IMG/VR virus record: IMGVR_UViG_3300028048_000080
Coordinates: 60,581 to 124,580 of that record
Length of the DNA stretch: 64,000 nt
Source: a virus
Lineage: Duplodnaviria; Caudoviricetes
Strand: one strand, 5' to 3'
Positions 28,559 to 48,027 of this stretch are shown here, piece after piece. Under the pieces are notes generated by a model. It made no database searches. It was not told where the DNA came from and saw only the letters and a program-made list of their open reading frames with translations. The position numbers were made by a program, and so were the translations under genes. Positions within the stretch are counted from its first letter, which is position 1, and each line of letters begins with the position of its first letter.

Positions 28559-30601
28559 ATGAAAAAGAATCGTTATTTAACCGACGTCAACGCTGTTGTG
28601 GAGATGGCTCGCGCCCATAAGCGCGTAGTCATTTCTAATCAGCAGGATTTTCAGGCGGTTACTCACCGTCTGACATCAAAGGCTGGTAAAATGTTCAGCG
28701 TTATGTCGCTGAATTATAACCAGTCTACCGGTTGGTTCTCGCCGATGGCGGTGAAAGTTCCGGTTTCACTGGAAACGGCGGAGCTGGAAGGTACGGTGCG
28801 CGCCGAAAACGCGCACATCAATAGCATCACTATGATGCCTATTGAACGATTCTCTCGGGCATACATTAATGTATGCTGCGGCGACAATCCGGACCTTTTA
28901 GACTTGCTGTTGCTCGACGGCAAGATTTATTGCGTCCTGAAAGTGGGCGCCAATGGGAAGAACGTGAAAGAATCGTTCTTCGTTCAGAGCGAAAAGGAAG
29001 GCGTTGCTCTGAATATCACCAATGGCAAGGAATGCCCGTTCACCGCCTTCGATAGGGAAGACGTACACGTACATGTGTACGGGCTTCTCGGGGTGTCTTC
29101 TCCCGGCCAGCAGAAACAGGGGGAAATCTCGCTTTATTGCGAGAATCTGGATGGTTTTGATGCCGTAGACCATCTGGACAACATGACTCACGGCATGTAT
29201 CGGCTTATCGCCAAGCATTATGCTGGGCAGCATGATAAGCTGAAAACCCTGGCACAGATTTCGACCCGTATCAGCCAGTTTAAAGCTGGCATGGTTCGGA
29301 CGAAACCTATCCAGGGTATTGCCATCTCTATGTTCAAAGTCAAGGATGTCCTTGACAATGAATGGATGGATGGTCTGCAGCTGTTCTCGGCCGAAGGTGT
29401 TGCCCGCGCTTTCAGCGACGATCAGTTTACGGTACTTCCGAGTGCCGTGGACGGAGCTGCCGCACAAGCTAGACCTCTTATCGTGAACAAAGGTTTGGGT
29501 TTGTGCATGCCGACTCAGTGCATCTTAACCATCTTAAGAGCGCTGGGGTGTGAGTTTGAATTCCTTGCTCAGGATGAACTCACGGATGAACAGTTTAAGA
29601 GCTACCAAAAGGCAGTTCTTAAAAAGTCCGGCGACTACAAGGGCAAAACGCTGGTTATTCTTCCGACTTTCAAGAAGGAAGATGGCAGCATTATGAGCGA
29701 CGAAGAGAAACTCATGCATATCGATGCGTGGGTGGATCTGAACGTACACAAAACTGTGTGCGATATTCGCCGCCCATTCACGGGATTCAATGTCATGGGC
29801 TTTGACCATGGCAAGAAAACCGTGGAGGAGGAAGCCAATACCTCCAATCAGTTATTGGCATCTGCGCTGTACGCTGATACTCCGCGTACTCTTGAGTATA
29901 TGCTCAATTGCACGAAGAAAGAGGCAGACAGCATTATGGCTAATGCCGTCCGCATGGATGGCCGGCGCCTGACAGCTAAAGACCTCTTAGGGGATTTGGC
30001 TATGGCTTCGCAGACAGCTTATCCAGAATTTGCCGTGCGCCATTGGGCGCCGTACTTCCAGGATAATCTGAATAAGGCCCTGGAAGGATTCGGTACGCGT
30101 CTTGAGAAACTGTCAGTTTCCACTGACGGTATCTATCTTAAGATTATTCCGGATCTTAGCCATTTCTTCGGTATCAACCTTCTCCAGTACGATGCCGAAG
30201 AGGGGGTATGCGAAGTGTTAGCACCGCAGCTTTCGAAAGAAGGCAAACGGCGCGCAATCGCTATCAAATACCCGAAGATGGCGACGGACGAATTCGCCAA
30301 GATTATTCCGGTTGCTCCGGAAGACTTGGTAGAACGTGCTCGCTACCATCTGGAGAATGGGGAAATCACCGAGGAACAGTTCGATGTACTGCAGCATCTG
30401 TTCTATATGCTTCATGACGGTATCATCATGGTGCCGGCTATCGAAGAATTGAAGAATATGCTTGCGGGCATGGACTTCGATGGTGATGCGCTTGTTGCTT
30501 ATTGTGATGAGACTTTGGTCGACATCATTTGGGCAATCAAACCCGTGGCAACTACTATTATGAAGGATAAAGACTTCGCCGTCTTTCAAGCTTCAAATTA
30601 A
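28559..30601 (+). CDS. Two-barrel RNA polymerase, cellular-RdRP/YonO-like, catalytic (N-terminal) part
   Basis: AGMDFDGDALVAYCD (DxDGD at 30473-30487). Upstream motifs in RdRP order: SSPGQQK, TRISQF, MDG, AQAR...KG, SNQ, IIPD, KYP. Confidence 0.85.
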   Translation: MKKNRYLTDVNAVVEMARAHKRVVISNQQDFQAVTHRLTSKAGKMFSVMSLNYNQSTGWFSPMAVKVPVSLETAELEGTVRAENAHINSITMMPIERFSRAYINVCCGDNPDLLDLLLLDGKIYCVLKVGANGKNVKESFFVQSEKEGVALNITNGKECPFTAFDREDVHVHVYGLLGVSSPGQQKQGEISLYCENLDGFDAVDHLDNMTHGMYRLIAKHYAGQHDKLKTLAQISTRISQFKAGMVRTKPIQGIAISMFKVKDVLDNEWMDGLQLFSAEGVARAFSDDQFTVLPSAVDGAAAQARPLIVNKGLGLCMPTQCILTILRALGCEFEFLAQDELTDEQFKSYQKAVLKKSGDYKGKTLVILPTFKKEDGSIMSDEEKLMHIDAWVDLNVHKTVCDIRRPFTGFNVMGFDHGKKTVEEEANTSNQLLASALYADTPRTLEYMLNCTKKEADSIMANAVRMDGRRLTAKDLLGDLAMASQTAYPEFAVRHWAPYFQDNLNKALEGFGTRLEKLSVSTDGIYLKIIPDLSHFFGINLLQYDAEEGVCEVLAPQLSKEGKRRAIAIKYPKMATDEFAKIIPVAPEDLVERARYHLENGEITEEQFDVLQHLFYMLHDGIIMVPAIEELKNMLAGMDFDGDALVAYCDETLVDIIWAIKPVATTIMKDKDFAVFQASN

Positions 30602-30669
30602 GTTGTCAATGCCGTATGTACAGAAAGCCCCCGATTATGCGGGGGCTAATTGTTTAGGAGGAGTCTATT

Positions 30670-32856
30670 ATGGAAAAGAAAGTTATCAATGCCCTGAATG
30701 CTATCGTTACCGGCAAAAACTACCCCATCGATGAACGGGTAGTTTGGACGTATTTCTATACGTACCAGAAAAAACAGATTGACCCGGTTGGGATGGTTAC
30801 GAAAGATTTCTGGCCATTTCAAGCCATTATGTACGCTGTTGATATGTACAAGATGGTGCAGAGCTGGGAAGAGTCCCCGGCAAAGACGGCTTGGCTCAAA
30901 GAGTTGAGCATGTCTTTGGACATCGCTTTTAAGTGGCTCAGAAATGAGCTGCTCGTCGGTACGGAATACACTGACAAGAAAAGCAATTACAAAGTATTCC
31001 GCGCACCCATCTCCGAGAAAGAGATGACCGGCGCTCCGAAAGTGAGCGCCATCTGCGTACGCGCTGGCCGCAAGGCCATTAACCGTGCGCGCAAAATGTT
31101 CTTTGCGCCGCTGAGCCAGCAGGAAATGGCTAAGAGCCATGAGCTTAGCGAAGAAGAACTCCTGACCTTGGATAATGTCATGGCATTCTGCAAGGTCATG
31201 GAAAAAGTGGGTCGTATGAGCCAGGAAGGCACTATCGACTCCACCAAGAGCGGTGACGCTCCGAAAATCCTGCAGTACGTCGTCAAGACGGAAGCAGGGA
31301 AGAACGGACTCCGTGAGGTAACCCTTATGGAGGCTCTTAGCCGTGTCAGCTTGCTTAGCCGTAAATCCGAGAAGTTTGGCGTACAGCTGAACTTCGAAGC
31401 AGGCGAAGTCGAGGTTAATCATAATAAACGTATCTCTTATCAGGAGAAGAAACGTTACGTGATTGCCGATATGTTGGATAAAATCCGCATTAACGGCCTC
31501 GACAACGCTATTCCGGCCGATGTATCGGAGAAGGTATTCGCCGTAAAGCAGGCACTCTCCGATGAGCAGATGGCGATCTGCAGCCGTCTTGCTGAACAAG
31601 GTGTATACGCAGACGCTATTCGTGTTCTTATGAACATTTATCGCAACCTGCGTGATACCCAGAAAGCAGATATGCGTCAGGCAATCAAGGATGCCGGCAA
31701 GAATGAGGAAGCTCAGAAAGCCGGTATTGCCGTAGCCAAGGAACAGACCAAGGTAGCGTACAATGCGCTGTCCAATACGGTGCGTTCCCTGGTGAAAGGT
31801 ATGAGCCATGAACAGCTCATTCAGCTCGTACTTGGAGTAACGTTCAAGTATATGGGCAAGGACGCAAAACGTCCGAGCTCTTTCGCCGGGATTATCCTGG
31901 CCGAGGAGTTCTTCGAATACATCATGAGCTTGTATTCGGAAAACGAGGAATTCGCACTTACCCGCGATGAACTCGCTGCGTGCGACGCAGAGGACGGAGA
32001 AGTGGTAGAGTTTGTCGGCGGCGTAGTACCTGGTCGTGCTATCTTCTCTCAGGAGAGAAACGCTATCCCCGATGGCGTGTACACCGTTCGTAAGAATGGC
32101 AAACATGCTTGGGTAGAGGCCAGTGTACGTGATCGTATCGAAGCTCGTTTAAACGATGCTTATAATCCGGAAGAACTCATCTTCCAGACTGGTACGATTG
32201 CCACCGAGAAAGAAGCCGATGCTCTGCTGGATGCTATTAACGGCGCCAACGAGGTAGTTCTCGCTTCTCGGATGCATAATCCGAATGGTGGCAAAGATCT
32301 CTTCGACGTAGTTTTAGCTGACGGCAAAGCTGTCGCTCATTATCAGACCAAGGTGAAGAACATGGTCAAGAACGATAAGGGCGAATTGGTAGCCAACAAG
32401 GTCAACGGCAAAGACGATTATACGATTTCGCAGGCTCTTCGTAAGTTCTACTCCGGTAAAACTGGCGAGGTTGCGTTCGCGCATAAGCTGTCTTTCGGCG
32501 AAGGCAATAAGACTCAGTATGCCGTCATCGTAGTACTGAAAGGTACTAAGCAGATGCGCGCCAATGCTGTAGTTAAAGCTGCCGCCGAAGCCGTTGTTAG
32601 CGCCGATTTCGGAGTAGAGAAGAAAGCTGCTCCTAAAGCGTCCGTTAATAGCCGTCTTGCCGCTCTTAAGGCAAAGGCTGCGGACAGTGAAAAGGAAGAA
32701 GCTCCTGCTCAGCCCGAAGAAGCAGAAGAAGCTCCTCAGCTTACCTTAATGCAGCGCCTGATGGCGAAACGCAACAAGGTAGCCGAGAAGCCCGTTACTG
32801 ATAAGAAGCCCAGCCGACTCGCTCGCCTGCGCAAAGCTGGTGCTGACATTCAGTAA
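30670..32856 (+). CDS. Probable C-terminal part/second subunit of the RdRP/YonO-like RNA polymerase
   Basis: PVGMVT and SQEGTIDSTKSG match the G-x-I-x-N and (A/T)(V/I)D-x-x-K-x-G motifs that follow DxDGD in this family; own AGGAGG RBS. Confidence 0.7.
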   Translation: MEKKVINALNAIVTGKNYPIDERVVWTYFYTYQKKQIDPVGMVTKDFWPFQAIMYAVDMYKMVQSWEESPAKTAWLKELSMSLDIAFKWLRNELLVGTEYTDKKSNYKVFRAPISEKEMTGAPKVSAICVRAGRKAINRARKMFFAPLSQQEMAKSHELSEEELLTLDNVMAFCKVMEKVGRMSQEGTIDSTKSGDAPKILQYVVKTEAGKNGLREVTLMEALSRVSLLSRKSEKFGVQLNFEAGEVEVNHNKRISYQEKKRYVIADMLDKIRINGLDNAIPADVSEKVFAVKQALSDEQMAICSRLAEQGVYADAIRVLMNIYRNLRDTQKADMRQAIKDAGKNEEAQKAGIAVAKEQTKVAYNALSNTVRSLVKGMSHEQLIQLVLGVTFKYMGKDAKRPSSFAGIILAEEFFEYIMSLYSENEEFALTRDELAACDAEDGEVVEFVGGVVPGRAIFSQERNAIPDGVYTVRKNGKHAWVEASVRDRIEARLNDAYNPEELIFQTGTIATEKEADALLDAINGANEVVLASRMHNPNGGKDLFDVVLADGKAVAHYQTKVKNMVKNDKGELVANKVNGKDDYTISQALRKFYSGKTGEVAFAHKLSFGEGNKTQYAVIVVLKGTKQMRANAVVKAAAEAVVSADFGVEKKAAPKASVNSRLAALKAKAADSEKEEAPAQPEEAEEAPQLTLMQRLMAKRNKVAEKPVTDKKPSRLARLRKAGADIQ

Positions 32857-34656: not shown

Positions 34657-35169
34657 ATGAACAAGGATTTATCTGTTCGCCAGCTCAATGCTTTTAAGGT
34701 TGGCGCATGCAAGCTGGGCATGCGCACGAGTTCTGATTACGTCAGAACTATTGGCGCATTCTTTGACGATTACAAGTTAAAAGAGTGCGAATATGACGGC
34801 AAGCTCTGGGAGATCATTGTGATGTTTGTGTTGGGAGTGTTCAAGGCATCCATGAAAGAACGTGGCATAAATTTCTGGATAGTCGTTGATTCCAGCTTGG
34901 ATATCGCCCAGATTGACCTGGAAATAAATCACCGTCCGATACAGCTGAAGTATGATTTTTCAGCGTTAGCCATTACCGCCATACAGGATGTTCTGTCTTG
35001 TAGCGGCATCACCGTTGTAGGAGCCAAGAAAGGAGATGACCCAATAGATATTTTTCGCGACATACTAAAAGCGGCCGGACTCTCCGAAGAGGAGATCGAC
35101 CGCGAGATTGATATTAATCCTGGTTTTGACGCCGCCTGTGAAGTGTGGGATTGGTTCACAGGCAATTAA
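34657..35169 (+). CDS. Possible PD-(D/E)xK nuclease-fold protein
   Basis: GKLWE...LDIAQIDLEINHRPIQLK. Confidence 0.45.
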   Translation: MNKDLSVRQLNAFKVGACKLGMRTSSDYVRTIGAFFDDYKLKECEYDGKLWEIIVMFVLGVFKASMKERGINFWIVVDSSLDIAQIDLEINHRPIQLKYDFSALAITAIQDVLSCSGITVVGAKKGDDPIDIFRDILKAAGLSEEEIDREIDINPGFDAACEVWDWFTGN

Positions 35170-35172
35170 TGA

Positions 35173-35424
35173 TTACCAGGTGTGTTTTTTGACGGGAGCA
35201 CTATTTAATGCCCGTAGCACGCTATCCCTAGTAGGAGCAGATTCCTTACCGTTGCACAGCACGATGTCCCATCCTTCGCTGCATGAAGTTCCTGGCTGAA
35301 CTGCTAAGATTTCCTGATAGATCTCTTCCACGAGATTAAAGACGGACTGTTCCTTCGTCTTGTAAGCATTAAATGCGCTTACGCATTTGGGAGTAATGGC
35401 GGCGGCAAATTCATCGGTAAACAT
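35173..35424 (-). CDS. Lone antisense-oriented hypothetical protein (83 aa)
   Basis: AAGGA RBS before ATG 35424; has its own promoter. Confidence 0.65.
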   Translation of the reverse strand: MFTDEFAAAITPKCVSAFNAYKTKEQSVFNLVEEIYQEILAVQPGTSCSEGWDIVLCNGKESAPTRDSVLRALNSAPVKKHTW

Positions 35425-35457
35425 CAGGCATTCCTTCTTTCTCTTAATTGTAACTAC

Positions 35458-35486
35458 ATTGTAACACATATAGTTGATTAAGTCAA
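35458..35486 (-). promoter_or_regulatory. sigmaA-type promoter for the lone minus-strand gene
   Basis: TTGACT-17bp-TACAAT, with TG immediately upstream of the -10 (extended -10). Confidence 0.7.
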
Positions 35487-35520
35487 GAGAAAGTTTCCCC
35501 TACGGGGTTACCGTCCCTGC

Positions 35521-35709
35521 TCACATCCTACCCTTGTCGTCCATGCCCTCAACTCATCATACCTACCAACAAACTCACTTACTACTCACTCATCATTCGT
35601 CGCACAGCTCATCATATCCACTCATAAACTTACTATCTACTTACTCACCATACGTCGTCCTACTTCCTACTTCCAACATACTACCTACTCATTCCTACTA
35701 TCTACCTTC
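35521..35709 (+). repeat. G-depleted CTAC/CATC low-complexity tract 1
   Basis: About 8 G in about 189 nt; shares words with 39767-39881. Confidence 0.85.
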
Positions 35710-35718
35710 GTCGTATAT

Positions 35719-35980
35719 ATACGCCCGTTGATAGCGGAGGCATTCGTACCTCTTATTGGCAGTATCCATTTAGGAATACCTACGGTGCAAGTTAGTACCG
35801 TTTATTTGGATACTTCTAATCTTACGTCGTACGATAAGCCCTTTGGTAGCGGAGGTGGCTGTTAAGCAGTTACTTTCGCTACCAAACCGTCACTACGCAG
35901 TAGGTACTACCATCCACATCATTGGGTGGTTATAGGTAATACCTACCTTCGTCGTACGGATAAACCCCTTAATAGCGGGG
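35719..35980 (+). promoter_or_regulatory. Three copies of a 21-bp motif ATAMRCCCNTTNRTAGSGGRG (candidate phage-RNAP promoter or RNA repeat)
   Basis: Copies at 35719, 35834 and 35960, each preceded by CGTCGTA; a fourth at 39867. Confidence 0.55.
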
Positions 35981-36063
35981 AAACAGGTAATACCCGCAAA
36001 TCAAGTTCATGTGTATTGGCTGTCAACAGAAAGAGACAGCCAGGAAGGAAAAGGTGAATCACT

Positions 36064-36879
36064 ATGGCTAACACGGTATTTGTAAACGAACGTAACTACG
36101 ATGTAGCAATCATCGGCGCTACCGACACGAAAGGTCACGGCCGTCTGGGCTGGATTAACAATGAGGCCGGCGAGATGGTATTGGCTAAGAAGGAGTTTAC
36201 CTTCGAGGCAGGTCAGAACAACGAGCATCAGGCCGCTTGCGCTACTCTTGCCGCCGAGAAATTGGTAGGCATGGTCAGCTCGGGCGCCGTAAAAGAAGGC
36301 ACCAACGTACTGCTGGTACTGCCCGACTCCTTGGCACCGCGTTTCTTCGAAGCCCGTAAAGTCATGAATCAGCATGACCTCAGCTCCGATGACGCAATCG
36401 AGGCTGCCGTCGATGACGTTATCAGCACTATCAGCAAAGACTGGATGTCCGAGTATTGGCTCAATGCTTTGGCTGATTTGGCTTGCGCTTACGGCGCTGC
36501 TCTCGGAGCTGGAGCCAATGTCGGCGCCGTAAAGAAGAGTGAGATTTATGAGCGCGAGCTCGTAAGCACTCTCGATGGCGGTGCTATGGCTGAAGATGAG
36601 GCTATTAAAGAAGGCGCCAAAATCACCGTCGACAAAGACGGCAACATCGCCGAGACTGAACTCTACAAAGCTCAGTATCTCCGCGCTGGTACGTACACGG
36701 TCATTGACCGTAGCTACGATACCAAGAAAGGCAAGGTATTGTCTTTCAGCGTTAACCGTTGGGAAGCTATGGACGAGAAGTTCATTCCTAACGCCGTCGC
36801 CAACCTGATGGACCTCAACAAGGCTGTCAGCGACGCATTGCCGAAGGCTAAGCGCCTTACGGTCAGTGCCGAAGCATAA
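36064..36879 (+). CDS. Hypothetical protein (271 aa), weak RNase H-like pattern
   Basis: AAGGTG RBS; QNNEHQA...LLVLPDS. Confidence 0.75.
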   Translation: MANTVFVNERNYDVAIIGATDTKGHGRLGWINNEAGEMVLAKKEFTFEAGQNNEHQAACATLAAEKLVGMVSSGAVKEGTNVLLVLPDSLAPRFFEARKVMNQHDLSSDDAIEAAVDDVISTISKDWMSEYWLNALADLACAYGAALGAGANVGAVKKSEIYERELVSTLDGGAMAEDEAIKEGAKITVDKDGNIAETELYKAQYLRAGTYTVIDRSYDTKKGKVLSFSVNRWEAMDEKFIPNAVANLMDLNKAVSDALPKAKRLTVSAEA

Positions 36880-36954
36880 GAAGTTAAGGGAGCGCTCCTC
36901 GTAGGGGCGCTCCCGTTATAAGTTAATTCGTGAATTACAAAGGAGAAGATAGAT

Positions 36955-37290
36955 ATGTTTGACGCAAAATTAAGTGTAGAAGACCAGGCTAAAATCGCTC
37001 GTGTATCGGGTTCTTTCTTAGCTGGATTGTGCCGTGGTACGGCTACTGCCCTGAAGGGCACGGGCTTCGTGCTGGATAAGTCTACCTCTATCACGGGTAG
37101 TGCGCTGCACGCTATCGCCAACGGTATCGAAACTGCCGGCGCTGTCAGCTCGGGTGCCTGCTATGCCGGAGCCAAGTACATGGAAGACAAGGCTGAAGGC
37201 TATGACCTCTCGGATATCACCGATGAGCAGCTCAAAGCAGCTTTGGCAGCAGAACAGGAAGAAATCGTCGTTGAAGGTCAGCCGGCTTAA
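36955..37290 (+). CDS. Ala/Gly-rich hypothetical protein
   Basis: AAGGAG RBS. Confidence 0.75.
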   Translation: MFDAKLSVEDQAKIARVSGSFLAGLCRGTATALKGTGFVLDKSTSITGSALHAIANGIETAGAVSSGACYAGAKYMEDKAEGYDLSDITDEQLKAALAAEQEEIVVEGQPA

Positions 37291-37323
37291 CAGCTCGGCT
37301 TACACAGGAAAGGAAGTCAAGTC

Positions 37324-37545
37324 ATGAAAGTTGGAATGGATTGTCATAAAGATTATTCTCATATCATGGGCAACTCCCAGAATATCTCTCATGGTGACGT
37401 AACGTTGGTAATCAACGGCGTTACTATCGAGATACCTATCGGCTTCTACACTAAGAAAGGGCATTTACGGAAGAAGTATATGTCCGTGGTGGCAGAAGCT
37501 ATTCTCCAGGCGCGCGGCAAACGTCGCGTAGTCATCGCTGCTTAA
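37324..37545 (+). CDS. Small basic hypothetical protein
   Basis: AAAGGA RBS; ends before a terminator. Confidence 0.7.
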   Translation: MKVGMDCHKDYSHIMGNSQNISHGDVTLVINGVTIEIPIGFYTKKGHLRKKYMSVVAEAILQARGKRRVVIAA

Positions 37546-37593
37546 TCCATGAAAGTTCTTACTACCTAAGTTACCTCCTAAATATATATAGAT

Positions 37594-37640
37594 AATGGGC
37601 TGTCATCCTGCTTCGGCGGGATACAGCCCATTCTTTTTTC
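37594..37640 (+). terminator. Intrinsic terminator
   Basis: aatgggctgt/acagcccatt stem enclosing a cTTCGg loop hairpin, followed by cttttttc. Confidence 0.85.
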
Positions 37641-38620
37641 TAGTTAAGTTATTTCCCGGGAAAGGTAAGCAGTGGACAATAAGTCCAGTTCTTTTTTCGA
37701 GGCATAAGATAAGCCATTGATTTATTTGGTAGTGTTATTAGCCTAGTTAATTTTCTACTAGCACTACCAGATACATCAATGACTTTGAGAGGGGATAACG
37801 ACCCTTCTTATTCTCGCGGCGCATACCCTCAAACTATTTCCTCGACCCTACCACTACCTAAGGGACGCTTCCAGTATATCCAGACATATAGGGGAGCGAA
37901 GCGACCGACTGAAGCGTAAGCGTAAGGAGGGAGCTGTTAAGAAGAATGGTATATATCATAGAGTTAACATTCTTCTTTTACCCGTAGGGTTATTCTTATT
38001 AATAACGTACTATAACCCTCCAACCTAAAAAAGGGTATACTACGGGCTTTTATAATCTTTTTTATCGGTATCTCGAGGTTACGTTATTTTCGCGGCGGAG
38101 AAAGCTTACACTCTGTATACGGTTCTCTCAGTAACTCTATATGGGAAGTTCTTCTGCTGCGTCCTATCCAAGAGTGCATTGCCCGACTTGCGACGAGGGT
38201 TTTCTTGAGTTATCCGCGGCACTTCGCACTGGATCGCCTGGAACCTCGAGAGACATTCAAGACTCTCGCCAAAACCTATTTACTCGTGGAAGGTTGCCGC
38301 GATTGATTAATGCTGCCGATCATAAGTAAGTTTTGGCGGCAACCGTAGAGGATTGGGGTGCATACTTTCTTTAAAGAGAAAATATCTGTCATCGTATATC
38401 TAAGATAACAGATACAAAAGAGAAAAAACTGTCATAGATCACATAAGCTCGTACCCGAAGGTCGCCAAACTTCGTTTGGCTCTGAACAACTCCGGGTACG
38501 AGCCGCGTATCTCAGATCTCATATCGATCTTACGATGAATCTATTACCGCCTAAAAATAGCTATATTACATTCCGTAGAAAATTTTTTATAAATTTTTTT
38601 TCGTAGAAGCTCTTAGACCC

Positions 38621-38649
38621 TTGCAGGCTCTTAAAGAAGATAGTATACT
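38621..38649 (+). promoter_or_regulatory. sigmaA-type promoter with AT-rich UP element
   Basis: TTGCAG-17bp-TATACT; A/T tracts at 38578-38601. Confidence 0.7.
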
Positions 38650-38690
38650 GATTAAGAGATTTTAGTTAAGACTAAAGGAGAATATTCATT

Positions 38691-38876
38691 ATGGCCAAAT
38701 GTCCGAATCCATTGCGTAACCTAAAGAAGTCGGCGGCGAAGAACCATTCTTACCAGCCGCGCACTTACTATAAAGGCATAGATATAACAGAGTATAACTA
38801 CCGTCCTCCTACGGACGAGGAACTGGATACCTTCTTGAGACGAGTAGGTTTTCTTCCTAAGAGCATAGTATGGTAA
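38691..38876 (+). CDS. Small hypothetical protein
   Basis: AAAGGAG RBS downstream of the promoter. Confidence 0.65.
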   Translation: MAKCPNPLRNLKKSAAKNHSYQPRTYYKGIDITEYNYRPPTDEELDTFLRRVGFLPKSIVW

Positions 38877-38904
38877 CGTTATACACTATTACAATAGAAG
38901 GAAA

Positions 38905-39099
38905 GTGAATAAGATCATGACTACTATCCATTTCGCGGGCAAAGAATACCGGTTGTCGCCGGCAACGCCTTCTTATCAGCCCGTCGACCCCAGTGAAATA
39001 GTAATTAATGAATATGAGACTATTAACGGTGCTACGGAAGATACTAATAACGTTATTTCTTTTAAGAGATTGTACGGATATGAGCGTACGCAGCCTTAA
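38905..39099 (+). CDS. Small hypothetical protein
   Basis: AAGGA RBS, GTG start. Confidence 0.55.
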   Translation: MNKIMTTIHFAGKEYRLSPATPSYQPVDPSEIVINEYETINGATEDTNNVISFKRLYGYERTQP

Positions 39100-39422
39100 A
39101 TTACGATTATGCTTCTAGAGCTTCTCAGACGTTAATCGTTTTAACCCTACGGGTACCTACCCATGCTTCATATAAGAAACTCATCTGAGAGCTTCTAAAT
39201 GGTTAAATCTATAAAACGTAGAACGTTAGCATTATAGCCCAGTTTTATCTCTAGCGATTAAGATGAATGAAATCACGCTTGTCAGTGATAAGAGCCATTT
39301 TAACTCGTAGAAAGAGCGTACGTGGAAATTAGAGACGGTTTTGAACCCGTAGGGACGTTTTGACGAAAACGCTTAAAATTCATGAGTTTTTATACATGGA
39401 CCAGGTTTATACGGAGAATAAG

Positions 39423-39494
39423 AAGGTTAATTGGATAGCTTTGGAAGGTTTGTAGGGCTCATATAAAGGTTTATTGGATAGTTTTGGAAGGTTT
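39423..39494. repeat. 29-bp direct repeat x2 (2 mismatches, period 43)
   Basis: aaggttaattggatagctttggaaggttt at 39423; aaggtttattggatagttttggaaggttt at 39466. Confidence 0.85.
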
Positions 39495-39766
39495 ATTCAC
39501 GCCCGTTTCAACGATTTGAGCATCAGCGGGCGGCAAATACCTCACGTTAACAGCCTTCCGACCGGATAGAATCTATATTCTATAAGAAAAACCACATTTC
39601 TCGCCACGTACGCTGCTTCTAGGAGCGTTCTTGGATGGATATAATAAGTTACCCTCTAACACGAGCTATATAACGTTAGAGGCCGTTATAAGACTACTAC
39701 TACCGTCCTCACGATCATAACCAAAATGACGGATAAAGGGAAGGAGGGGGTAGGGGGAGGATAGGG

Positions 39767-39887
39767 CTAATCAACTCATACTACCTACTTTCACCCATCA
39801 TACCTACTAACTCATCATTTTTCAATTTATCTACTAAACCGTTACTACCTACTTTCCATCCTACCAATAAACCCCTTTATAGGGGGC
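39767..39887 (+). repeat. G-depleted tract 2 ending in the 21-bp motif
   Basis: One G in 39767-39881; ATAAACCCCTTTATAGGGGGC at 39867. Confidence 0.85.
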
Positions 39888-39928
39888 AGGGTAAGAGATA
39901 GAAAGATAGAAAAAGGAGCATACTTATT

Positions 39929-40141
39929 ATGGCTAATGAATATTTCGTGACCTACTTCGATAAAGAAAAGAATAAGAAAGTTGATTTAGGTCCCAGGAAG
40001 TTTTACGGGGATGACTGGAAAGAAGACGAAGGTTTCTCCAGTAAGGATGAGGCAGAACTGGCTATGGGCGCCGCGAAAAAAGCTGCCGTAACGCATCATG
40101 CCTACGGCGGCAATACCCATTTTATTATCACCCGTAGGTAA
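39929..40141 (+). CDS. Hypothetical protein
   Basis: AAAGGAG RBS. Confidence 0.7.
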   Translation: MANEYFVTYFDKEKNKKVDLGPRKFYGDDWKEDEGFSSKDEAELAMGAAKKAAVTHHAYGGNTHFIITRR

Positions 40142-40198
40142 GTAATAAGAGAGATAAAAGAGGGAGAAAATTAAGAACAGGAAAGGTGACAGAATATT

Positions 40199-40543
40199 AT
40201 GCCTATAACTTTAGCGGAAAGAATAGATGAGCTTAACGACTTAATCGAAAGAGTTAAGTCGAAGCAGGAAAGTTTAAAAGCCGCCGCCGAAAAGATGGAA
40301 ACGCTGCAGCGCGCAATTGACTATCTGGATAAAGAGGTGGAAGGCGAAGAAATTCCGGTTAGTACTACTGAATACGGATATCAGGGAGTGGGCGGCTACT
40401 GGGTATGTGATGACCTTCCCGTTTCTAAAGAGGGCTTTATTGAGTTCTTGAAGAAACAGAAAGAAGAATACCGCGCCGCCGCCGAAAAACTGGTTAATGA
40501 ACTGAATGAGGCCATGGATGGTAACAGTTATAAGGAAAGTTAA
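40199..40543 (+). CDS. Coiled-coil hypothetical protein
   Basis: RBS; heptad pattern. Confidence 0.7.
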   Translation: MPITLAERIDELNDLIERVKSKQESLKAAAEKMETLQRAIDYLDKEVEGEEIPVSTTEYGYQGVGGYWVCDDLPVSKEGFIEFLKKQKEEYRAAAEKLVNELNEAMDGNSYKES

Positions 40544-40567
40544 GCAAGAAAAAAGGAAGTAAGGAAA

Positions 40568-41125
40568 ATGGAAGAAGAAAAGAAAGTCATAAAGGAACTT
40601 AAGAGACTGGAACGTAATACGAAGAAAACCTATTCATTAAAGGAACTGGAGAAGATCAAGGTAGACGATATCCCCTTTCGGCTGGAACGTACCAGAGAAT
40701 GCGTCAAGCATAATAAAGGAGAGAACGCTAGGGACGTAGCCTTAATGCTGCCGGGTTACTTCATGACTTGGGGCGCTTATATATTAAGAGATGTATGGCG
40801 CACGTTCTTTTATCATTATGGCCGCGACTTAATGGAAACCCACTGGAGAGAGTACGGTAGAAGATACTGGCATATAACCGGTTTAGGTATAGAGCAGGCT
40901 AGAGCTATTAAATGCTTCGATGAAGGTACTAAGTTCGAGCCTATGCCTTACGAGCTGTTCGAATTATACGGTGAAGTATGGAAACATCAGCACGTATTGG
41001 ATGAAATGTCCAGATTAGGGGTGGAGGCGATGACTAAGCCCGCCACCGAGCTAGAGAAATCCATCAAGAAAGTGAAAAGATGGTGCGAAGATAACGACTA
41101 TCATAATGGACTGAGATACCTATGA
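40568..41125 (+). CDS. Hypothetical protein
   Basis: RBS; part of an operon. Confidence 0.7.
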   Translation: MEEEKKVIKELKRLERNTKKTYSLKELEKIKVDDIPFRLERTRECVKHNKGENARDVALMLPGYFMTWGAYILRDVWRTFFYHYGRDLMETHWREYGRRYWHITGLGIEQARAIKCFDEGTKFEPMPYELFELYGEVWKHQHVLDEMSRLGVEAMTKPATELEKSIKKVKRWCEDNDYHNGLRYL

Positions 41126-41454
41126 CGTTAAGAGAATACTACAAATATAACGTAAGGAATAGGATAAAGAGAAGAAGAGAAGAATATAACTACAGGAAGT
41201 ATAAGCCGGGACATGGCATGGAGACAAGAGGGAGACACTACGGTTTTGCCGCCCAAATAAGATTATGCTATATGAACATTGACCGGATACGGGAAATTGG
41301 TGAAAGACACGGTGATATATCCACGATGACCAGGCCATTAACTATCGCTGAGTGGAACGCCAATCTGGAAAGATTGATGAACGAAGTGTCGAGAGAAGCG
41401 GCATTCTTCAGAAACGTACCACGCTTCGTAAACGAAGATTTAGACGGGAACTGA
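41122..41454 (+). CDS. Basic hypothetical protein
   Basis: ATGA overlap with the upstream gene. Confidence 0.65.
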   Translation: MTLREYYKYNVRNRIKRRREEYNYRKYKPGHGMETRGRHYGFAAQIRLCYMNIDRIREIGERHGDISTMTRPLTIAEWNANLERLMNEVSREAAFFRNVPRFVNEDLDGN

Positions 41455-41480
41455 AAAGAGAGAGAGGGGGTCGTGGGAGA

Positions 41481-41843
41481 GTGACTTTAACCGAGTATTT
41501 TATCGTTAACAAGATCAATACGGAAGTTCAGTGTTACAGAGGAATAGACCTTCAATGTGTGCCGCGAACGGATTATCATAAGTATAAGGCTAAGCTGTTT
41601 AAATTGAACGGTACCGATTACTCTATCTGGATACCTAATAGACACTTGGATAAGGACGGTACGTTATTTTGCGGCGAAGATATCGATTACGTATTTAGAA
41701 GTGAGCGAAATAGAGAAGCCATCATCCGCGCCGGAATTAATCCGCATATATTCGACAGGGTGCATGACATGTATCCCCGCCGCCGCGGTATCCGGGAATG
41801 GGATGAATGGGTAGACTGGGCTAACATAACAATGAACGATTGA
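41481..41843 (+). CDS. Hypothetical protein
   Basis: GTG start after a G-rich RBS; start position uncertain. Confidence 0.65.
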   Translation: MTLTEYFIVNKINTEVQCYRGIDLQCVPRTDYHKYKAKLFKLNGTDYSIWIPNRHLDKDGTLFCGEDIDYVFRSERNREAIIRAGINPHIFDRVHDMYPRRRGIREWDEWVDWANITMND

Positions 41844-41861
41844 ATAGAGGAGGAGTTAATT

Positions 41862-42182
41862 ATGATGGGACAGCAGATAATGGTATATTTAGTAGTGGCG
41901 TCCTGCCATCAGCATGAAATAGGAGAATGGATGGGCTCTGCTGAGCATGAGCACGAAATATCCACTTCCATATTGGCTATAGGTCAATCCCGTAGCTGGG
42001 CAGAGCAATTTGCCCGCGAATACGTGGAAGAACTAGGTCTGGAAGACCTGGAAGTATCAGGCTCCTATTACGAAGGAGAGCGAAATGGCGCTCGAATAGA
42101 GATAAACGTGGTGGAAGCGCCGATGGGCGACTGCCATCACCTGGAACTTCGCCGCGAGTTCGTGTCGTATCAGATAGACTGA
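41862..42182 (+). CDS. Acidic hypothetical protein
   Basis: GAGGAGGAG RBS. Confidence 0.7.
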   Translation: MMGQQIMVYLVVASCHQHEIGEWMGSAEHEHEISTSILAIGQSRSWAEQFAREYVEELGLEDLEVSGSYYEGERNGARIEINVVEAPMGDCHHLELRREFVSYQID

Positions 42183-42203
42183 TATACGGGAGGGTAAGCC
42201 AAT

Positions 42204-42599
42204 ATGATTGACCGCAAGGAAGTCAAAAGATATATAGAAAAGGCCCATAACAAGGAGCTGTTAAAGATCCTGTTATGGGTAGTAATGGAAATGGTATGGC
42301 GCTGGGATGAAGAAGACGACGATAAGAAGGAAGAAGAAGTTATATCGGCGCCGGAAATCCCGCTAGAAGACCTGGATATCAGCGTACGTACCTTCAACTG
42401 CTTAAAAAGAGCGGGCGTGGAAACGTTGGAACAAGCTTGTCTGTTGCCGCCAGAGCAGTTATGGAACATAAGGAATTTGGGGCGCCGCAGCGCCATCGAA
42501 ATAGTGCAAGTCATGAAACAAAATGGCTATGACTACGAAGGGCGCTGGAATATCGACGCAGAAAGTTATGAAAGACCTACGGTAGAAAGGAAAGATTGA
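42204..42599 (+). CDS. Stand-alone RNA polymerase alpha-subunit C-terminal domain protein
   Basis: LEDLDISVRTFNCLKRAGV...L..IRNLGRRSAIEI is the canonical alpha-CTD signature; no alpha-NTD. Confidence 0.9.
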   Translation: MIDRKEVKRYIEKAHNKELLKILLWVVMEMVWRWDEEDDDKKEEEVISAPEIPLEDLDISVRTFNCLKRAGVETLEQACLLPPEQLWNIRNLGRRSAIEIVQVMKQNGYDYEGRWNIDAESYERPTVERKD

Positions 42600-42793
42600 A
42601 ACAAAAGATGATGAACGTAATTAACAGTTTTAAGAGATTAGCTTATAGAGTACAGCCTATTTCTCATATTAGAAAGTGAGGGGCGCGTAAGGAAGGTCAG
42701 GAACGTCGCGACCAGTATTACGCATTCGAGGAACAGCTCAAGAGTGCCCGCAAGGAATTCGGTTACGAGAGCAATAGAGACTGGAAACTGTAA
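42596..42793 (+). pseudogene. Small ORF interrupted by one in-frame TGA (42677-42679)
   Basis: The frame continues protein-like after the TGA: GARKEGQERRDQYYAFEEQLKSARKEFGY. Confidence 0.45.
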
Positions 42794-43079
42794 GAGAACT
42801 CAGGGGCGGCTTACGCCGCTACCCATAAACCATATCATACCTACCAATCATGAATCCCGTTTAACGTTTACTGATACGAACGTTAGGCGGGATATCGTTT
42901 ATATTTACGAACATTGTAATGTGAAATAGCTTTTAAAAAGAGGTATAGCCTAAATAAAGCGGCGAGAATGTGAGAAAAACCGACCGTTATAACGCGCTCA
43001 GTCCTTGACATATAAGGCTTAAAGCGTATTTCGTTTTTCTTGACATTCTCCCATGATTCTTATTAAGGAGGAGCCAATC

Positions 43080-43319
43080 ATGACTAGAGAACGTGCCTGC
43101 AAGGAATTGTTTCACTTATGGGGATATGCCTATATGAGTGGCTTCCCCGAAGCCGTAAAAGAAGCCAAGATGATGGAAAAGGAGTATAGCCTTATATTGT
43201 CGCCGCGCGAAATGCGTACCATCCGTGAATGGGGATACGGCGACAGCTATGAAGCATACGTAGGAGGATTATCGGGTTATACCGAGAACGATATGCTGCG
43301 CGACGTAATGTGCGCTTAA
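43080..43319 (+). CDS. Hypothetical protein
   Basis: AAGGAGGAG RBS before ATG 43080. Confidence 0.7.
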   Translation: MTRERACKELFHLWGYAYMSGFPEAVKEAKMMEKEYSLILSPREMRTIREWGYGDSYEAYVGGLSGYTENDMLRDVMCA

Positions 43320-43333
43320 GGAGACATGAGAGG

Positions 43334-43549
43334 ATGGATAAGATTAAGAAACTGCTGCCCATGCTTTTAATAGCCATAGTTATAGGCCAAGGATATGTTC
43401 CTCAAGGAACTACCACGGCTCAAGGCAGATTGCTTGCCCGCCGCGCGGCTATAGTGGATGTCTGTCACCAGTTGGGTGGAAGCCGAGGCATCCAGATATT
43501 GGATGAGTCATTTGACGGCAAGACCTACACGGTCAAAGCCGTAAGATAA
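43334..43549 (+). CDS. Small secreted/membrane protein
   Basis: MDKIKKLLPMLLIAIVIG signal-like N-terminus. Confidence 0.6.
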   Translation: MDKIKKLLPMLLIAIVIGQGYVPQGTTTAQGRLLARRAAIVDVCHQLGGSRGIQILDESFDGKTYTVKAVR

Positions 43550-43590
43550 AGTGTTATATGTTGAGCGAAAGAAATAGGAGGAAAATCACC

Positions 43591-43971
43591 ATGGAAATGA
43601 ACGTTAACGTAAGCAAGAAAGTATTGGTTCGCTACGCAGAAGTTGTCTGCCGCATCGCCGACGAGAAGATTGACCTGGAAAAAGAAGTATGGAATAAAGA
43701 ACTTCAGGGCGATGTTAAGAAGGGGCCGTTCGCATTACGCATGTATGAATCCGTACATGAGGAAAATCGTACGGTGCATTTCGCTTACGGCCTGAACGAT
43801 GAATTCATTATGGACGTACTGGATATCGTAGATAAGCACAGCGACAGCCTGAAGTCCATCGTTAAAGGCTTTGTGGCTATCTATAAAGGTACTAAAGGTT
43901 TCGTGGCAGGCTTCACCAAGGATGTTAAGGAAGCAGCCAAGAAGTATAATGCGCCGCGAAAAGCCGCTTAA
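43591..43971 (+). CDS. Hypothetical protein
   Basis: AGGAGG RBS; ends RKAA. Confidence 0.75.
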   Translation: MEMNVNVSKKVLVRYAEVVCRIADEKIDLEKEVWNKELQGDVKKGPFALRMYESVHEENRTVHFAYGLNDEFIMDVLDIVDKHSDSLKSIVKGFVAIYKGTKGFVAGFTKDVKEAAKKYNAPRKAA

Positions 43972-44019
43972 TTAATTGATTAAGTCAAGTATATAGAATA
44001 ATCAGAGGAGGAGTTCACC

Positions 44020-44172
44020 ATGAAGAAGACTTACATATCTGAAGTATGGGGAGTAAAGCGTTCCCGGTTTTTCCGTTTTATCGGCTGCAAGAAAGCTATC
44101 TTACTGGTGGCTTCTTCTCGCCGCCGCGAAATGGAAAGAAGACTGGATGCCCGCGAGGCAGCAGTCGCGTAA
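44020..44172 (+). CDS. Small basic protein (50 aa; not in ORF track)
   Basis: GAGGAGGAG RBS; MKKTYISEVWGVKR... Confidence 0.6.
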   Translation: MKKTYISEVWGVKRSRFFRFIGCKKAILLVASSRRREMERRLDAREAAVA

Positions 44173-44192
44173 GAGAGAGGAACAAGAAGATT

Positions 44193-44642
44193 ATGAGCAA
44201 GAAGTATACTATTCAGGATTTCATGACGGGCTATAAATATGCCTATATCGCCACCGCCCGTGGTAAAAAGGATATCGTTAAATTCCAGAACACGAAAATC
44301 TGGTTTTTAAAAGCCCTGTCCGACGCCTTGGAAAAGACGGTAACGGAAGAAGAACTTTCGCGCCGCATGTTTAAGCGAGCCAAAGTAGTTCTCTCTTACT
44401 ACGTTCTGTACGAAACGGATTACGCCCGTAAGAGATATCTCATGAGTATCATGGATAGATGGACATATATGGACGCCATGTTCAATGGCGTACTGTCGCT
44501 GGAATCCATGAAACGCTGCGCTGACACACGTATGCGTAAATTGCGGGCCGACGACGCGAAAATTAAAGATTGCTTCGCGCGCTGCTTAAAGAAGGGCATG
44601 GACGTGGAAGATATTAAGAGAGCTATCAGAAAAGCTGCTTAA
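44193..44642 (+). CDS. Basic hypothetical protein
   Basis: RBS before ATG 44193; ends RKAA. Confidence 0.7.
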   Translation: MSKKYTIQDFMTGYKYAYIATARGKKDIVKFQNTKIWFLKALSDALEKTVTEEELSRRMFKRAKVVLSYYVLYETDYARKRYLMSIMDRWTYMDAMFNGVLSLESMKRCADTRMRKLRADDAKIKDCFARCLKKGMDVEDIKRAIRKAA

Positions 44643-44657
44643 GAGAAGAAAAAGTGC

Positions 44658-44687
44658 TTGCGCTAAGAGAGACGAATGTGCTAGAAT
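44658..44687 (+). promoter_or_regulatory. sigmaA-type promoter, extended -10
   Basis: TTGCGC-18bp-TAGAAT with TGn. Confidence 0.55.
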
Positions 44688-44752
44688 AATCCTTGTACGG
44701 TAAGGATTTGTTCCACTTTCGCCTCTCTTATTTTCTCTATATCTAAAAGAGG

Positions 44753-45034
44753 GTGTTGACTATGAAAAAATTAGTCTTAACTATTTTGATGTTATGCTTA
44801 CTGCAGGGCGTATGCCTGGCATCCGACTGGAGTCTTAAAGAAGAAATCTATACGGTCAAAGCTGGCGACACTATGGAAAGCATAGCCCAAGAATACATGA
44901 AAAAGAATACTTACGGCCCCAGGGAATCCCACGAGTTCATCGAAGGTATCCTGGAACTGAACAATATGAGTGTGGCCGACATTCATGTCGGCGACAAATT
45001 AAGAATCAATTATTGGATTAAGAAGGGGAAATAA
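44753..45034 (+). CDS. LysM-domain protein with signal/anchor (YneA-like architecture)
   Basis: YTVKAGDTMESIA...ILELNNM...IHVGDKLRI. Confidence 0.85.
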   Translation: MLTMKKLVLTILMLCLLQGVCLASDWSLKEEIYTVKAGDTMESIAQEYMKKNTYGPRESHEFIEGILELNNMSVADIHVGDKLRINYWIKKGK

Positions 45035-45037
45035 GAG

Positions 45038-45217
45038 ATGTTTGAGACGGTGAAAGTAAAGACAGGTGTTTGCCCCGTATGCGGTCACGCACACGGCTAC
45101 GAGAAAGAAATCAACAACGGGATGCTGGTAAATGAATACTCCGAATGTACCTGCCACAAGGCTACGTACGAAAAAGATGTGTATAAAATGCATCAGGAAT
45201 CACTGAGAAATTTTTGA
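45038..45217 (+). CDS. Small Zn-ribbon-like protein (not in ORF track)
   Basis: CPVCGH...CTC. Confidence 0.6.
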   Translation: MFETVKVKTGVCPVCGHAHGYEKEINNGMLVNEYSECTCHKATYEKDVYKMHQESLRNF

Positions 45218-45233
45218 TGGAGGAGGAACTATC

Positions 45234-45392
45234 ATGGTGAAAAAAGTAAAGAAGCCCGCCGGTAGTTACCAGACAGATAGAGCGATCAGCAAGGGCTTTA
45301 GCGCCGCCTATCTTTTAACAGCCTTGATGGGGACGGGTTCCAAGCAGGTTTCCATTGCCCGCAACTTGTGGAACCTTTTCGGTAGAAGATGA
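45234..45392 (+). CDS. Small basic protein (not in ORF track)
   Basis: GGAGGAGG RBS; ATGA overlap with the primase. Confidence 0.6.
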   Translation: MVKKVKKPAGSYQTDRAISKGFSAAYLLTALMGTGSKQVSIARNLWNLFGRR

Positions 45393-46471
45393 ATTACAAC
45401 GGTTGGATAGCAGAGTTCGGCGGGAAATCATCGGAGGGATTCTTCCGCCGAAACATCTACTGCTTGCATGATGAGAGTTATTTATCCAATAAATGGAGCT
45501 TTATCAAGGAATGCCAGAATACCGATGTTTACGAATGCGCTTACAAGTATGAAGATACCAATTACGGCACCTGTCGTATGATTGGCGAGCCATACTTAGA
45601 TTTCGATATTGATGACATAGAAGACGAGGCAAATTACCGCAGATTGGTAAGGGCCGTCAAATATGCCGTCAATTATATCGAAAATGCTATGGCCATACCG
45701 GCCGAACAGCTAAGGCTGTACTTCTCGGGAAAGAAAGGTTTTCACGTAATCATCCCGGGAGAAATAGTAGGCATCGAACCATCGGAAAAGCTTAACGAGG
45801 ATTTTAAGCATTTCGCGCTGGGCATGGCATTCCTGCAGTGCGGTCGCGACGTAGCGAAAACCGCTAAGACTTTATTGGATACGGGCATTTACGACAGAAA
45901 AAGGCTGTTCCGTATCGTAAACAGCATCAACTCTAAGTCCAATCTTCGTAAAGTACCTATCAGTATAGATCAGTTATACGATTTTTCTTACGAGGATATA
46001 AAGGAGTGGGCCAGCAAGTCTCATACAGTCCTGCCCAAAGCCAATAGTTTTAATATGAAGGCTAAGAGAGGCTACGAGACGATAATGGAAGTTGGCCGCG
46101 AATATATCATGCTGCGCGACGGCGTAGTCAAGAGGCATAGCAACAGGAGAATAAAGCTAAAAGAAGGAGAACTCTTAGAGCTTTTGCCCTGTACCAAGAA
46201 TTTATTGGAAACGGGCGCCATTAAAGGTTTCCGCAACCACGCTTTATTCGCCTTGGCGTCAAGCCTGGCGCAATCCGGTTATAAGCCGGACGATATTTAC
46301 CAGATGGCTGACGAATGGAACAGTCGTAATGAAGAACCGCTGGCAGAACGGGAAATACAGACTACGGTCAACTCAGCTATTAACAGCTATGAATCAGGTA
46401 TGACCGTCGGCTGCGGCAAGTATAAGGACTTGGGTTACTGCCAGGACAACTGCAAGTTATTGGAGGACTGA
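45389..46471 (+). CDS. Archaeo-eukaryotic primase (primase-polymerase) with PriCT-like domain
   Basis: YLDFD, FSGKKGFH, DTGIYD..RLFR; RNHALF...WN...PL.EREI..TVNSA; terminal Cys cluster. Confidence 0.9.
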   Translation: MNYNGWIAEFGGKSSEGFFRRNIYCLHDESYLSNKWSFIKECQNTDVYECAYKYEDTNYGTCRMIGEPYLDFDIDDIEDEANYRRLVRAVKYAVNYIENAMAIPAEQLRLYFSGKKGFHVIIPGEIVGIEPSEKLNEDFKHFALGMAFLQCGRDVAKTAKTLLDTGIYDRKRLFRIVNSINSKSNLRKVPISIDQLYDFSYEDIKEWASKSHTVLPKANSFNMKAKRGYETIMEVGREYIMLRDGVVKRHSNRRIKLKEGELLELLPCTKNLLETGAIKGFRNHALFALASSLAQSGYKPDDIYQMADEWNSRNEEPLAEREIQTTVNSAINSYESGMTVGCGKYKDLGYCQDNCKLLED

Positions 46472-47325: not shown

Positions 47326-48027
47326 ATGTACACTAATTTTTTTGACGTAGGCGATAAAGTTTATCACAATAGCTATGGCAGCGGAAAAATCATAGAAATG
47401 GATGATACCGTTTCACCTCCGCGTTATGAAATTGTTTTTGACCGTTATCCGAATAAGAAAATTACTGTAGTCGGCCATAATGACCTGGTGCTTCCTATTG
47501 AACCAGAAATATTAGCCAAGAAACTTTTCAGCGGGCTTAATGAAGATTTGGTTCGCTCGCTGAACAAGAAGCTTAGCAGTGACAAAGCGACTAAAGAAGT
47601 TAAAGATAGCAAGGAGAAAAAAGATACGATGGCTATGAATGAACGGAAACTTTCTTTGGACAATAACGGTAACGTAGTAGGTGGCGCGGTATTCAGCGAT
47701 AGTATGCATACACATCCTGCCAGCAAGAAGTCTGAGCCGGAAAGTGTTGCCCGCCACCGTAAAATCGTGATGGGGCTTAACGAGCTCTATGCTAAAAAGA
47801 ACGCCGACTATGGCGACAGCTTCCATGAAACTTTTAAAGAGGAAGGTATGGCTATGGCCCGTATCCGTCTTAGCGATAAACTCAATCGCTTTAAGAGCCT
47901 TACTCGCGGCAAGAGTCAGCAGATTGCTGACGAAAGCATTCGCGATACCCTTCTCGATTTGGCTAACTACGCCGTCATGACGGTTATCGAAATGGATAGA
48001 GAAGCTGGCGCGAAGGCAGGTGCTTAA
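47326..48027 (+). CDS. Tudor/SH3-like domain fused to DUF1599 (nucleotide-modification-associated) domain
   Basis: FDVGDKVYHNSYGSGKI; KKNADYGDSF...RLSDKLNR...ESIRDTLLDLANYA. Confidence 0.8.
   Translation: MYTNFFDVGDKVYHNSYGSGKIIEMDDTVSPPRYEIVFDRYPNKKITVVGHNDLVLPIEPEILAKKLFSGLNEDLVRSLNKKLSSDKATKEVKDSKEKKDTMAMNERKLSLDNNGNVVGGAVFSDSMHTHPASKKSEPESVARHRKIVMGLNELYAKKNADYGDSFHETFKEEGMAMARIRLSDKLNRFKSLTRGKSQQIADESIRDTLLDLANYAVMTVIEMDREAGAKAGA

Follow-up and report, generated by a model that had tools for sequence, protein, structure and literature searches.

A conserved block ahead of phage operons as a candidate promoter for a split two-barrel RNA polymerase

What is the role of a short sequence that occurs four times, in a single orientation, in the DNA of an uncultured giant phage? 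The phage comes from the cattle gut and is known only from metagenomes (IMG/VR record IMGVR_UViG_3300028048_000080). The stretch that we analyzed, hereafter the window, is the last 64 kb of the 124,580-bp virus contig, which CheckV rates as 54% complete. The original prediction held the sequence to be a candidate 21-bp promoter motif for the RNA polymerase of the phage, a putative two-barrel enzyme split over two genes that lies 3-7 kb upstream of the motif. This candidate cognate enzyme (28559-32856, plus strand) is encoded by open reading frame 1 (ORF1, 28559-30601, with DFDGD near the C-terminus of its product) and ORF2 (30670-32856). Comparison with related loci leads us to favor, on balance, the view that the motif is the core of a ~36-bp promoter for a phage-encoded polymerase, with the split enzyme as its probable reader; that it is a promoter of some kind appears likely.

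All four plus-strand sequences are present as originally quoted, starting at positions 35719, 35834, 35960 and 39867. If the G of the conserved TA|G is numbered +1, the blocks to which they belong extend from about -30 to +6, all on the plus strand: copy 1 at 35704-35739 (proposed +1 G at 35734), copy 2 at 35819-35854 (35849), copy 3 at 35945-35980 (35975) and copy 4 at 39852-39887 (39882). The spacing of copies 1-3 (115 and 126 bp), the (T)CGTCGTA word ahead of each of these three and the gaps of 83 and 41 nt to the ATGs at 36064 and 39929 were likewise given correctly. The copies can be accepted as non-coding once an 85-amino-acid (aa) ORF with a TTG start (35474-35731), which overlaps copy 1, is discounted; we did so because its G-poor repeat tract differs in length among relatives. 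A degenerate pattern with ≤3 mismatches finds exactly these four sites in the window, where shuffles predict 0.06. We also ran a weight matrix, derived from the window copies and those of near relatives, over the whole contig; the four copies score 28-33 bits and the next-best site 13.7 bits, no more than shuffled sequence yields (mean maximum 13.6, largest 18.0). The four copies are real and exceed chance. Two weaker matches that had been placed beside them, at 28262 and 37876, do not rise above chance in the matrix scan and are not members; the second has only its TATA|GGGG end in common with the motif. It falls at the start of a separate conserved non-coding block (37876-37940, GACATATAGGGGAGCGAAGCGACCGAC...GGAGGGAGCTGTTAAGAAGA), which is common to two of the relatives described below (L013 5075-5135 and L001 18295-18345) and may be another start site or an RNA.

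Is the motif a property of this genome or of a family of phages? Loci of relatives were collected from metagenome assemblies via ORF1, a 271-aa protein encoded directly after copy 3, and a profile of that protein; the ORF1 relatives are 54-95% identical. An array of two to four copies precedes the homolog of the 271-aa gene in all eight lineages, even at protein identities as low as 36-37%: three copies in L008/L012, L010/L013, L005/L006/L009, L001/L002 and L003, four in L016, and two in L014/L015 and L011, whose proteins are merely 36-37% identical. The array lies a few genes past the split polymerase in all seven lineages with a contig that reaches it, the contig of L013 starting inside ORF2. 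The original prediction had asked whether the motif is absent from relatives that carry the polymerase; this check was run, and the motif is present in 7/7 lineages with the polymerase on the same contig. Two relatives carry additional copies elsewhere. In L011, one stands 55 nt ahead of an unrelated 73-aa gene, and in L005 a good copy on the minus strand (4203-4221, ATAAACCCTTACATAGCGG), with a +1 hairpin, lies antisense to a 76-aa early gene upstream of the polymerase, where it is a possible promoter of an antisense RNA. No match was obtained when a phage database was searched by DNA, and no relatives were found when IMG/VR was searched with the polymerase ORF1 and with the 271-aa profile. 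A two-copy motif pattern gave four matches in IMG/VR, all of which are unrelated coding tandem repeats and were rejected.

The 26 copies from the eight lineages, anchored on the G of TA|G, define the extent of the conserved unit. It is a gap-free block, as predicted, but the predicted length does not stand, since the repeated unit measures ~36 bp (about -30 to +6) rather than 21 bp. When copies within a genome are compared with each other, identity is at background (~25%) beyond -30 and beyond +6, ~50% from -30 to -16 and 65-72% from -15 to +5, and the 3′ edge of the block, at +5/+6, is sharp. The sequence separating the copies is not repeated. Only the block recurs while its flanks are at background, and the array therefore contains no duplicated RNA unit. 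The profile is anchored by A-15 (25/26 copies), T-2 (24/26), A-1 (25/26) and G+4 (23/26), with further conserved positions at C-10 to C-8, T-5 and G+3, which gives a layout of an A/T-rich part with A-15, a C run at -10..-8, T(-5)..T(-2)A(-1) and G(+1).G(+3)G(+4). The part from -30 to -16 is lineage-specific. Copies of the same genome are more alike than orthologous copies of different genomes, both in the core (72% vs 56%) and in the upstream part (57% vs 43%), a pattern that would be expected of sites read by one factor that drifts with the lineage.

What lies downstream of +1 is frequently a predicted RNA hairpin. In minimum-energy folds of +1..+45, a hairpin begins at +1 to +3 in 18/26 copies, compared with 44% of control TAG sites, and the hairpin count is highest at shifts of 0 to +2. 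Copy 1 is followed by a structured non-coding RNA (35736-35820, plus strand) that is recognized by covariation and G-U pairs. Its 5′ hairpin, with the invariant loop ATTCGTAC, is succeeded by a long irregular stem, inside which lie a short hairpin and U-rich internal loops. This RNA comprises 26 pairs, with 93.5% of cells paired and 5 pairs changed on both sides; the observed values are reached by 0-1 of 500 shuffles, and slid controls drop to 37-50% paired. From the +1 of copy 2 extends a 13-bp 5′ hairpin (35849-35879, plus strand; 13 pairs, 4 changed on both sides, rich in G-U), followed by ~70 nt of less conserved non-coding sequence. In this genome only, the hairpin has a 7-bp extension into the motif (35842-35886), which we regard as incidental because it is absent from the 97% relative L008. 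The leader of the 271-aa gene, which follows copy 3 (35975-36063, plus strand), contains two hairpins, one with GCGGG...CCCGC at 35975-35997 (GCGGT/ACCGC in L001) and one at 36017-36042, just 5′ of the ribosome-binding site, with 8 pairs of which 3 are changed on both sides (7 lineages). From the G-U pairs and covariation it follows that transcription of the plus strand passes through units 1-3. A 5′ hairpin at +1 is missing from copy 4 and from two L011 copies, and the leader of copy 4 is purine-only as far as the ribosome-binding site. Where it occurs, the +1 hairpin may shield the 5′ end or assist in separating the RNA from the template. A small-RNA array had been proposed as the alternative to a promoter, and half of this holds: copies 1 and 2 do precede conserved structured non-coding RNAs, but the RNAs themselves are not repeated, with units 1, 2 and the leader adopting differing structures. 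Against the Rfam 15 covariance models, the window had no match at gathering scores and 35100-40100 had none even at E-values up to 5, a tRNA/tmRNA scan found none, and the unit-1 RNA pattern was found in none of the bacterial/archaeal genomes searched.

If the copies are promoters, which polymerase reads them? No plus-strand sigma-70 match (-35/-10 hexamers, 16-18 bp spacer) lies at or near any copy; by eye, TGGTAG and TAATAG lack A2 and T6 of the -10 hexamer. As had been claimed, the two operon-leading genes have no sigma-70-like promoter, no plus-strand site being found before either. No sigma-70 family gene was found in the contig, the visible 54% of the genome. A T7-like polymerase gene (PF00940) was not matched in the 124.6-kb contig either, but its absence is unproven, since the contig represents 54% of the genome and no match was obtained in the control genomes. 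We read the motif as a promoter because it is oriented before genes and RNAs, ends at hairpins, evolves in concert and travels with a phage polymerase. The copies are gap-free, share one orientation and point at downstream genes or RNAs at several independent loci. Sequence comparison favors a promoter throughout, and we infer this role, the start site and ORF1+ORF2 as the enzyme. Transcription would start at the G of TA|G. Tandem copies 1-3 would fire in the same direction, copies 1 and 2 producing structured non-coding RNA and all three feeding the operon of the 271-, 111- and 73-aa genes, and copy 4 would head a long operon of small early-type and replication genes. The split enzyme would be made first and would then read the motif. 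Such a cascade fits because the motif is absent before the split-polymerase operon, which has its own conserved element and a sigma-70-like match.

The genes around the copies are arranged as follows. Left of ~26.8 kb are minus-strand structural genes, and from 27142 plus-strand genes. ORF2 is followed by three more genes, one short minus-strand gene and then the 594-nt gap with copies 1-3; the region from 35.4 to 39.9 kb holds the longest non-coding gaps of the contig. The three-gene operon (271, 111 and 73 aa; 36064-37545, plus strand) that we propose to be driven by copies 1-3 begins with the 271-aa gene (36064-36879), which always follows the array. The model of its product (predicted local distance difference test score 90) best matches RNase H-fold proteins of ~130-320 residues (NurA nuclease, RNase HI), and these structural matches are weak (template modeling score ~0.45 on the target). 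The 271-aa protein has no Pfam, PHROG or PDB sequence match, and neighboring proteins compared with Pfam, PHROGs and PDB sequences gave nothing. An intrinsic-terminator-like hairpin with a T run (37597-37639, plus strand) closes the operon, and the same element occurs in L013. Between this hairpin and copy 4 lie ~2.3 kb of gene-poor DNA. The long operon that starts after copy 4 (39929-46471, plus strand) contains many small genes, an alpha C-terminal domain (alpha-CTD) protein and a primase (45389-46471). The alpha-CTD protein (42204-42599) is a stand-alone product of 131 aa with a bacterial RNA polymerase alpha C-terminal domain (PF03118, E 3e-17). Further on, a 233-aa protein (47326-48027) has a DUF1599 match together with weak PcrA/UvrD tudor and CarD/TRCF RNA polymerase-interacting matches (E 0.001-0.008). 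From 40 kb to the end of the window, GC skew is positive throughout.

Copies 1 and 4 are further distinguished by what precedes them. Stretches with ≤6% G per 100 nt occur in the 64-kb window only at 35520-35729 and 39758-39888, and these end in copies 1 and 4. Tract 1 (35520-35718, plus strand, ~6% G), directly upstream of copy 1, consists in part of 55-nt repeats (family D1) with CTCATCAT and (T)CGTCG words. Tract 2 (39758-39866, plus strand), directly upstream of copy 4, has a CAACTCAT...TACCTAC repeat in common with tract 1 and a third D1 copy at 39772-39824. In relatives, the sequence upstream of the first array copy has 5-12% G, and in L011 AACTCATCAT is found at ~-39..-32 of each copy. 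The tracts may extend the recognition site or offer a landing region, represent copies of the promoter that have decayed, or act as an insulator.

Several other signals were observed in this part of the contig. Mini-hairpins of the sequence CCCTACGGG (C(UACG)G tetraloop type) lie at 35498 and 39145 on the plus strand and at 37981 and 39346 on the minus strand, in the gene-poor region only, and in each relative the gap with the array starts with one or two of them. The palindrome TTGATTAAGTCAA, which looks like an operator, is found twice (35474-35486 and ~43976-43988); the first overlaps a 10-of-12 sigma-70-like promoter with a TG extension that serves a minus-strand 98-aa gene (35173-35469). 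A 29-nt repeat, TTACC.CCTAA...(G)CTATAT.AC, has three copies (37571, 38544 and 39649) in the gene-poor region. The divergent gap that precedes the polymerase operon holds a perfect inverted repeat, AATTGTC.GACAATT, with TCCTATAGGG after it (26988-27012). This element overlaps a 9-of-12 sigma-70-like match and has TATA|GGG in common with copy 4; being nearly identical in L005, L001 and L003, it exceeds the proteins in conservation. Minus-strand structural genes are preceded by a second promoter-like motif, GGTAATA-N8-9-TAG, located after terminator hairpins, with one site in the window (26890-26910, minus strand) and others in the contig at -8175, -17213, -41379, -41846 and -48626 relative to the window start. 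It ends in TAG, as the array motif does.

A number of points weigh against the motif as a promoter of the split polymerase. There are just four copies in 124.6 kb and none ahead of the structural operons, which carry the different GGTAATA-N8-9-TAG motif, and the array motif is thus at best one promoter class among several. The enrichment of hairpins at +1 is modest (p ~0.008, with copies that are not independent), and gene conversion could also yield concerted evolution. L001 and L013 lack a counterpart of copy 4, and the contigs of close relatives end before this position; sigma-70-like sequences are found near this position in L001/L013. A "promoter swap", in which copy 4 replaces the sigma-70-type promoter of these relatives, was dropped as support because the positions are not cleanly homologous. 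As to the enzyme, the unseen half of the genome could code for a further polymerase or factor, and a putative tail-fused virion polymerase of the same phage could be the reader.

The last of these points leads to the alternative that survives best, a promoter that is read by the tail-fused virion polymerase or by host RNA polymerase redirected by a phage factor. The sequence evidence for a promoter is silent on the enzyme. The genes past copy 4 look early, with many small ORFs and the alpha-CTD protein, and genes of this sort are transcribed by virion polymerases in other jumbo phages; some interplay with the host polymerase is also hinted at by the alpha-CTD protein and the weak CarD/TRCF-like domain. 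Yet the lack of the motif before the split-polymerase operon, with that operon's own element and sigma-70-like match, fits a cascade, and the copies have no sigma-70 hexamer match in a contig that shows no sigma gene. We therefore consider such a reader unlikely.

The main alternative to a promoter is a signal at the RNA level, in which the ~600-nt gap is one leader or precursor and motif plus hairpin mark nuclease cuts, the hairpins protecting the 5′ ends. This would agree with the transcription of the plus strand through units 1-3, and endonuclease sites usually lie where a single-stranded stretch containing A/U is immediately followed by a hairpin. G-depleted RNA would be unstructured and accessible, and the gene that always follows encodes a protein with a weak match to the RNase H/NurA-like fold. 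However, a 36-nt RNA signal with a lineage-specific, concertedly evolving upstream part would be unusual, and the -30..-1 part takes part in no structure. No plus-strand promoter was found upstream of copy 1 from which such a precursor could originate. Moreover, neither copy 4 nor the L011 copy, each of which is a solitary site ahead of a gene, has an upstream RNA module, and copy 4 is without a hairpin. On these grounds processing seems distinctly improbable.

Sites for a DNA-binding protein, whether replication-origin iterons, operators of a regulator or terminase recognition sites, are a poorer fit still. The copies are direct repeats of one orientation in the most gene-poor 4.5 kb of the contig, adjoining replication genes; they evolve in concert, and the upstream tracts contain further short repeats. 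Against this, neighboring copies are set far apart at unequal distances (78-126 bp), arrays differ in their number of copies (2 to 4), each copy is directed toward a gene or RNA downstream, the block stops where the transcribed hairpins start, and one L011 and one L005 copy lie in unrelated places. We judge this very unlikely. Finally, a small hairpin of the C run with the G run, acting as a minus-strand terminator or structural element, is scarcely credible and was rejected: most copies do have C at -10..-8 and G at +3..+5 and copy 4 is terminator-like on the minus strand, but copy 4 alone is flagged, the stems are 3-5 bp, the pairing register is not conserved among lineages and the pairing is missing in L003, and the G run pairs instead with downstream sequence in a compensatory manner (GCGGG/CCCGC vs GCGGT/ACCGC).

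How does the proposed phage promoter compare with known ones? Promoters of the T7/T3/SP6 type consist of ~20 contiguous bp: a far part rich in A/T, a specificity part, TA immediately ahead of the start, and a start at G that is followed by G/A. The motif resembles those of T7 and T3 in this outline. It differs from them in that the block reaches ~-30, that positions -9..-5 depart from the T7-group consensus, and that the candidate enzyme is of a different fold. The L005 copies carry ATTAACCC(T/C), and one of them carries ATTAACCCT, the first nine bases of the T3 promoter; the likeness to T3/T7 is a resemblance of layout, not membership. With three tandem copies at intervals of ~120 bp leading an operon, the arrangement is reminiscent of T7 A1-A3, three tandem early promoters read by the host polymerase. 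The virion polymerase of phage N4 uses hairpin promoters, in which a hairpin upstream of the start is the recognition element. As in N4, there is a small promoter set for a phage polymerase and a hairpin is involved. However, no conserved hairpin of the N4 type (5-7 bp stem, 3-nt loop) is present upstream of +1 in the copies, where the G-poor -30..-1 part is unable to fold; the hairpins here belong to the transcript, from +1 onward.

Two phages with two-barrel polymerases offer further comparison. Thermus phage P23-45 has two such enzymes, gp96 in the virion and the non-virion gp64, each with its own conserved motif, and there the starts were mapped by ONT-cappable-seq and the enzymes placed by chromatin immunoprecipitation sequencing (ChIP-seq) (PMC10770324). 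In both phages a contiguous motif was found by comparison and is common to relatives that carry the enzyme. Here, in contrast, the candidate polymerase is split into two genes; the motif is unrelated in sequence as far as the text of PMC10770324 tells, and the tandem arrays, +1 hairpins and G-depleted tracts are found here. YonO of the Bacillus prophage SPbeta transcribes a 37-gene operon from one promoter, a non-coding RNA lying just past the start, and the sequence of this promoter was left undetermined in that study (PMC5467207). YonO and the candidate enzyme are alike in being two-barrel polymerases, with very few promoters, each for a very long operon, and a non-coding RNA directly downstream; YonO is a single chain rather than split, and its promoter does not form a tandem array. 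Given the precedents of P23-45 and YonO, the small number of sites is no objection to the proposed promoter.

A fuller picture can be drawn, which we offer tentatively and hold to be rather unlikely. In it, the block would be the self-sufficient promoter of a new family of split, QDE-1-like two-barrel phage polymerases, its T3/T7-like layout having arisen by convergence. The G-depleted tract upstream would serve as a landing region and the hairpin at +1 would be obligatory, since a minimal enzyme without lid and rudder may need it to strip the RNA off the template. The tandem copies would make abundant, functional structured non-coding RNAs.

Very few of the non-canonical two-barrel polymerases of phages have a known promoter. 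The motif described here provides a defined and comparatively validated sequence with predicted starts, and may thus serve as a test substrate for an unstudied polymerase family, with A-15, C-10..-8, T-2, A-1 and G+1 as the bases predicted to be critical. Also new are the conserved structured non-coding RNAs and the G-depleted tracts that are tied to the motif. The apparent presence of at least three classes of signal in the contig, namely the pre-polymerase element, the array motif and GGTAATA-N8-9-TAG, suggests that this phage follows a transcription program.

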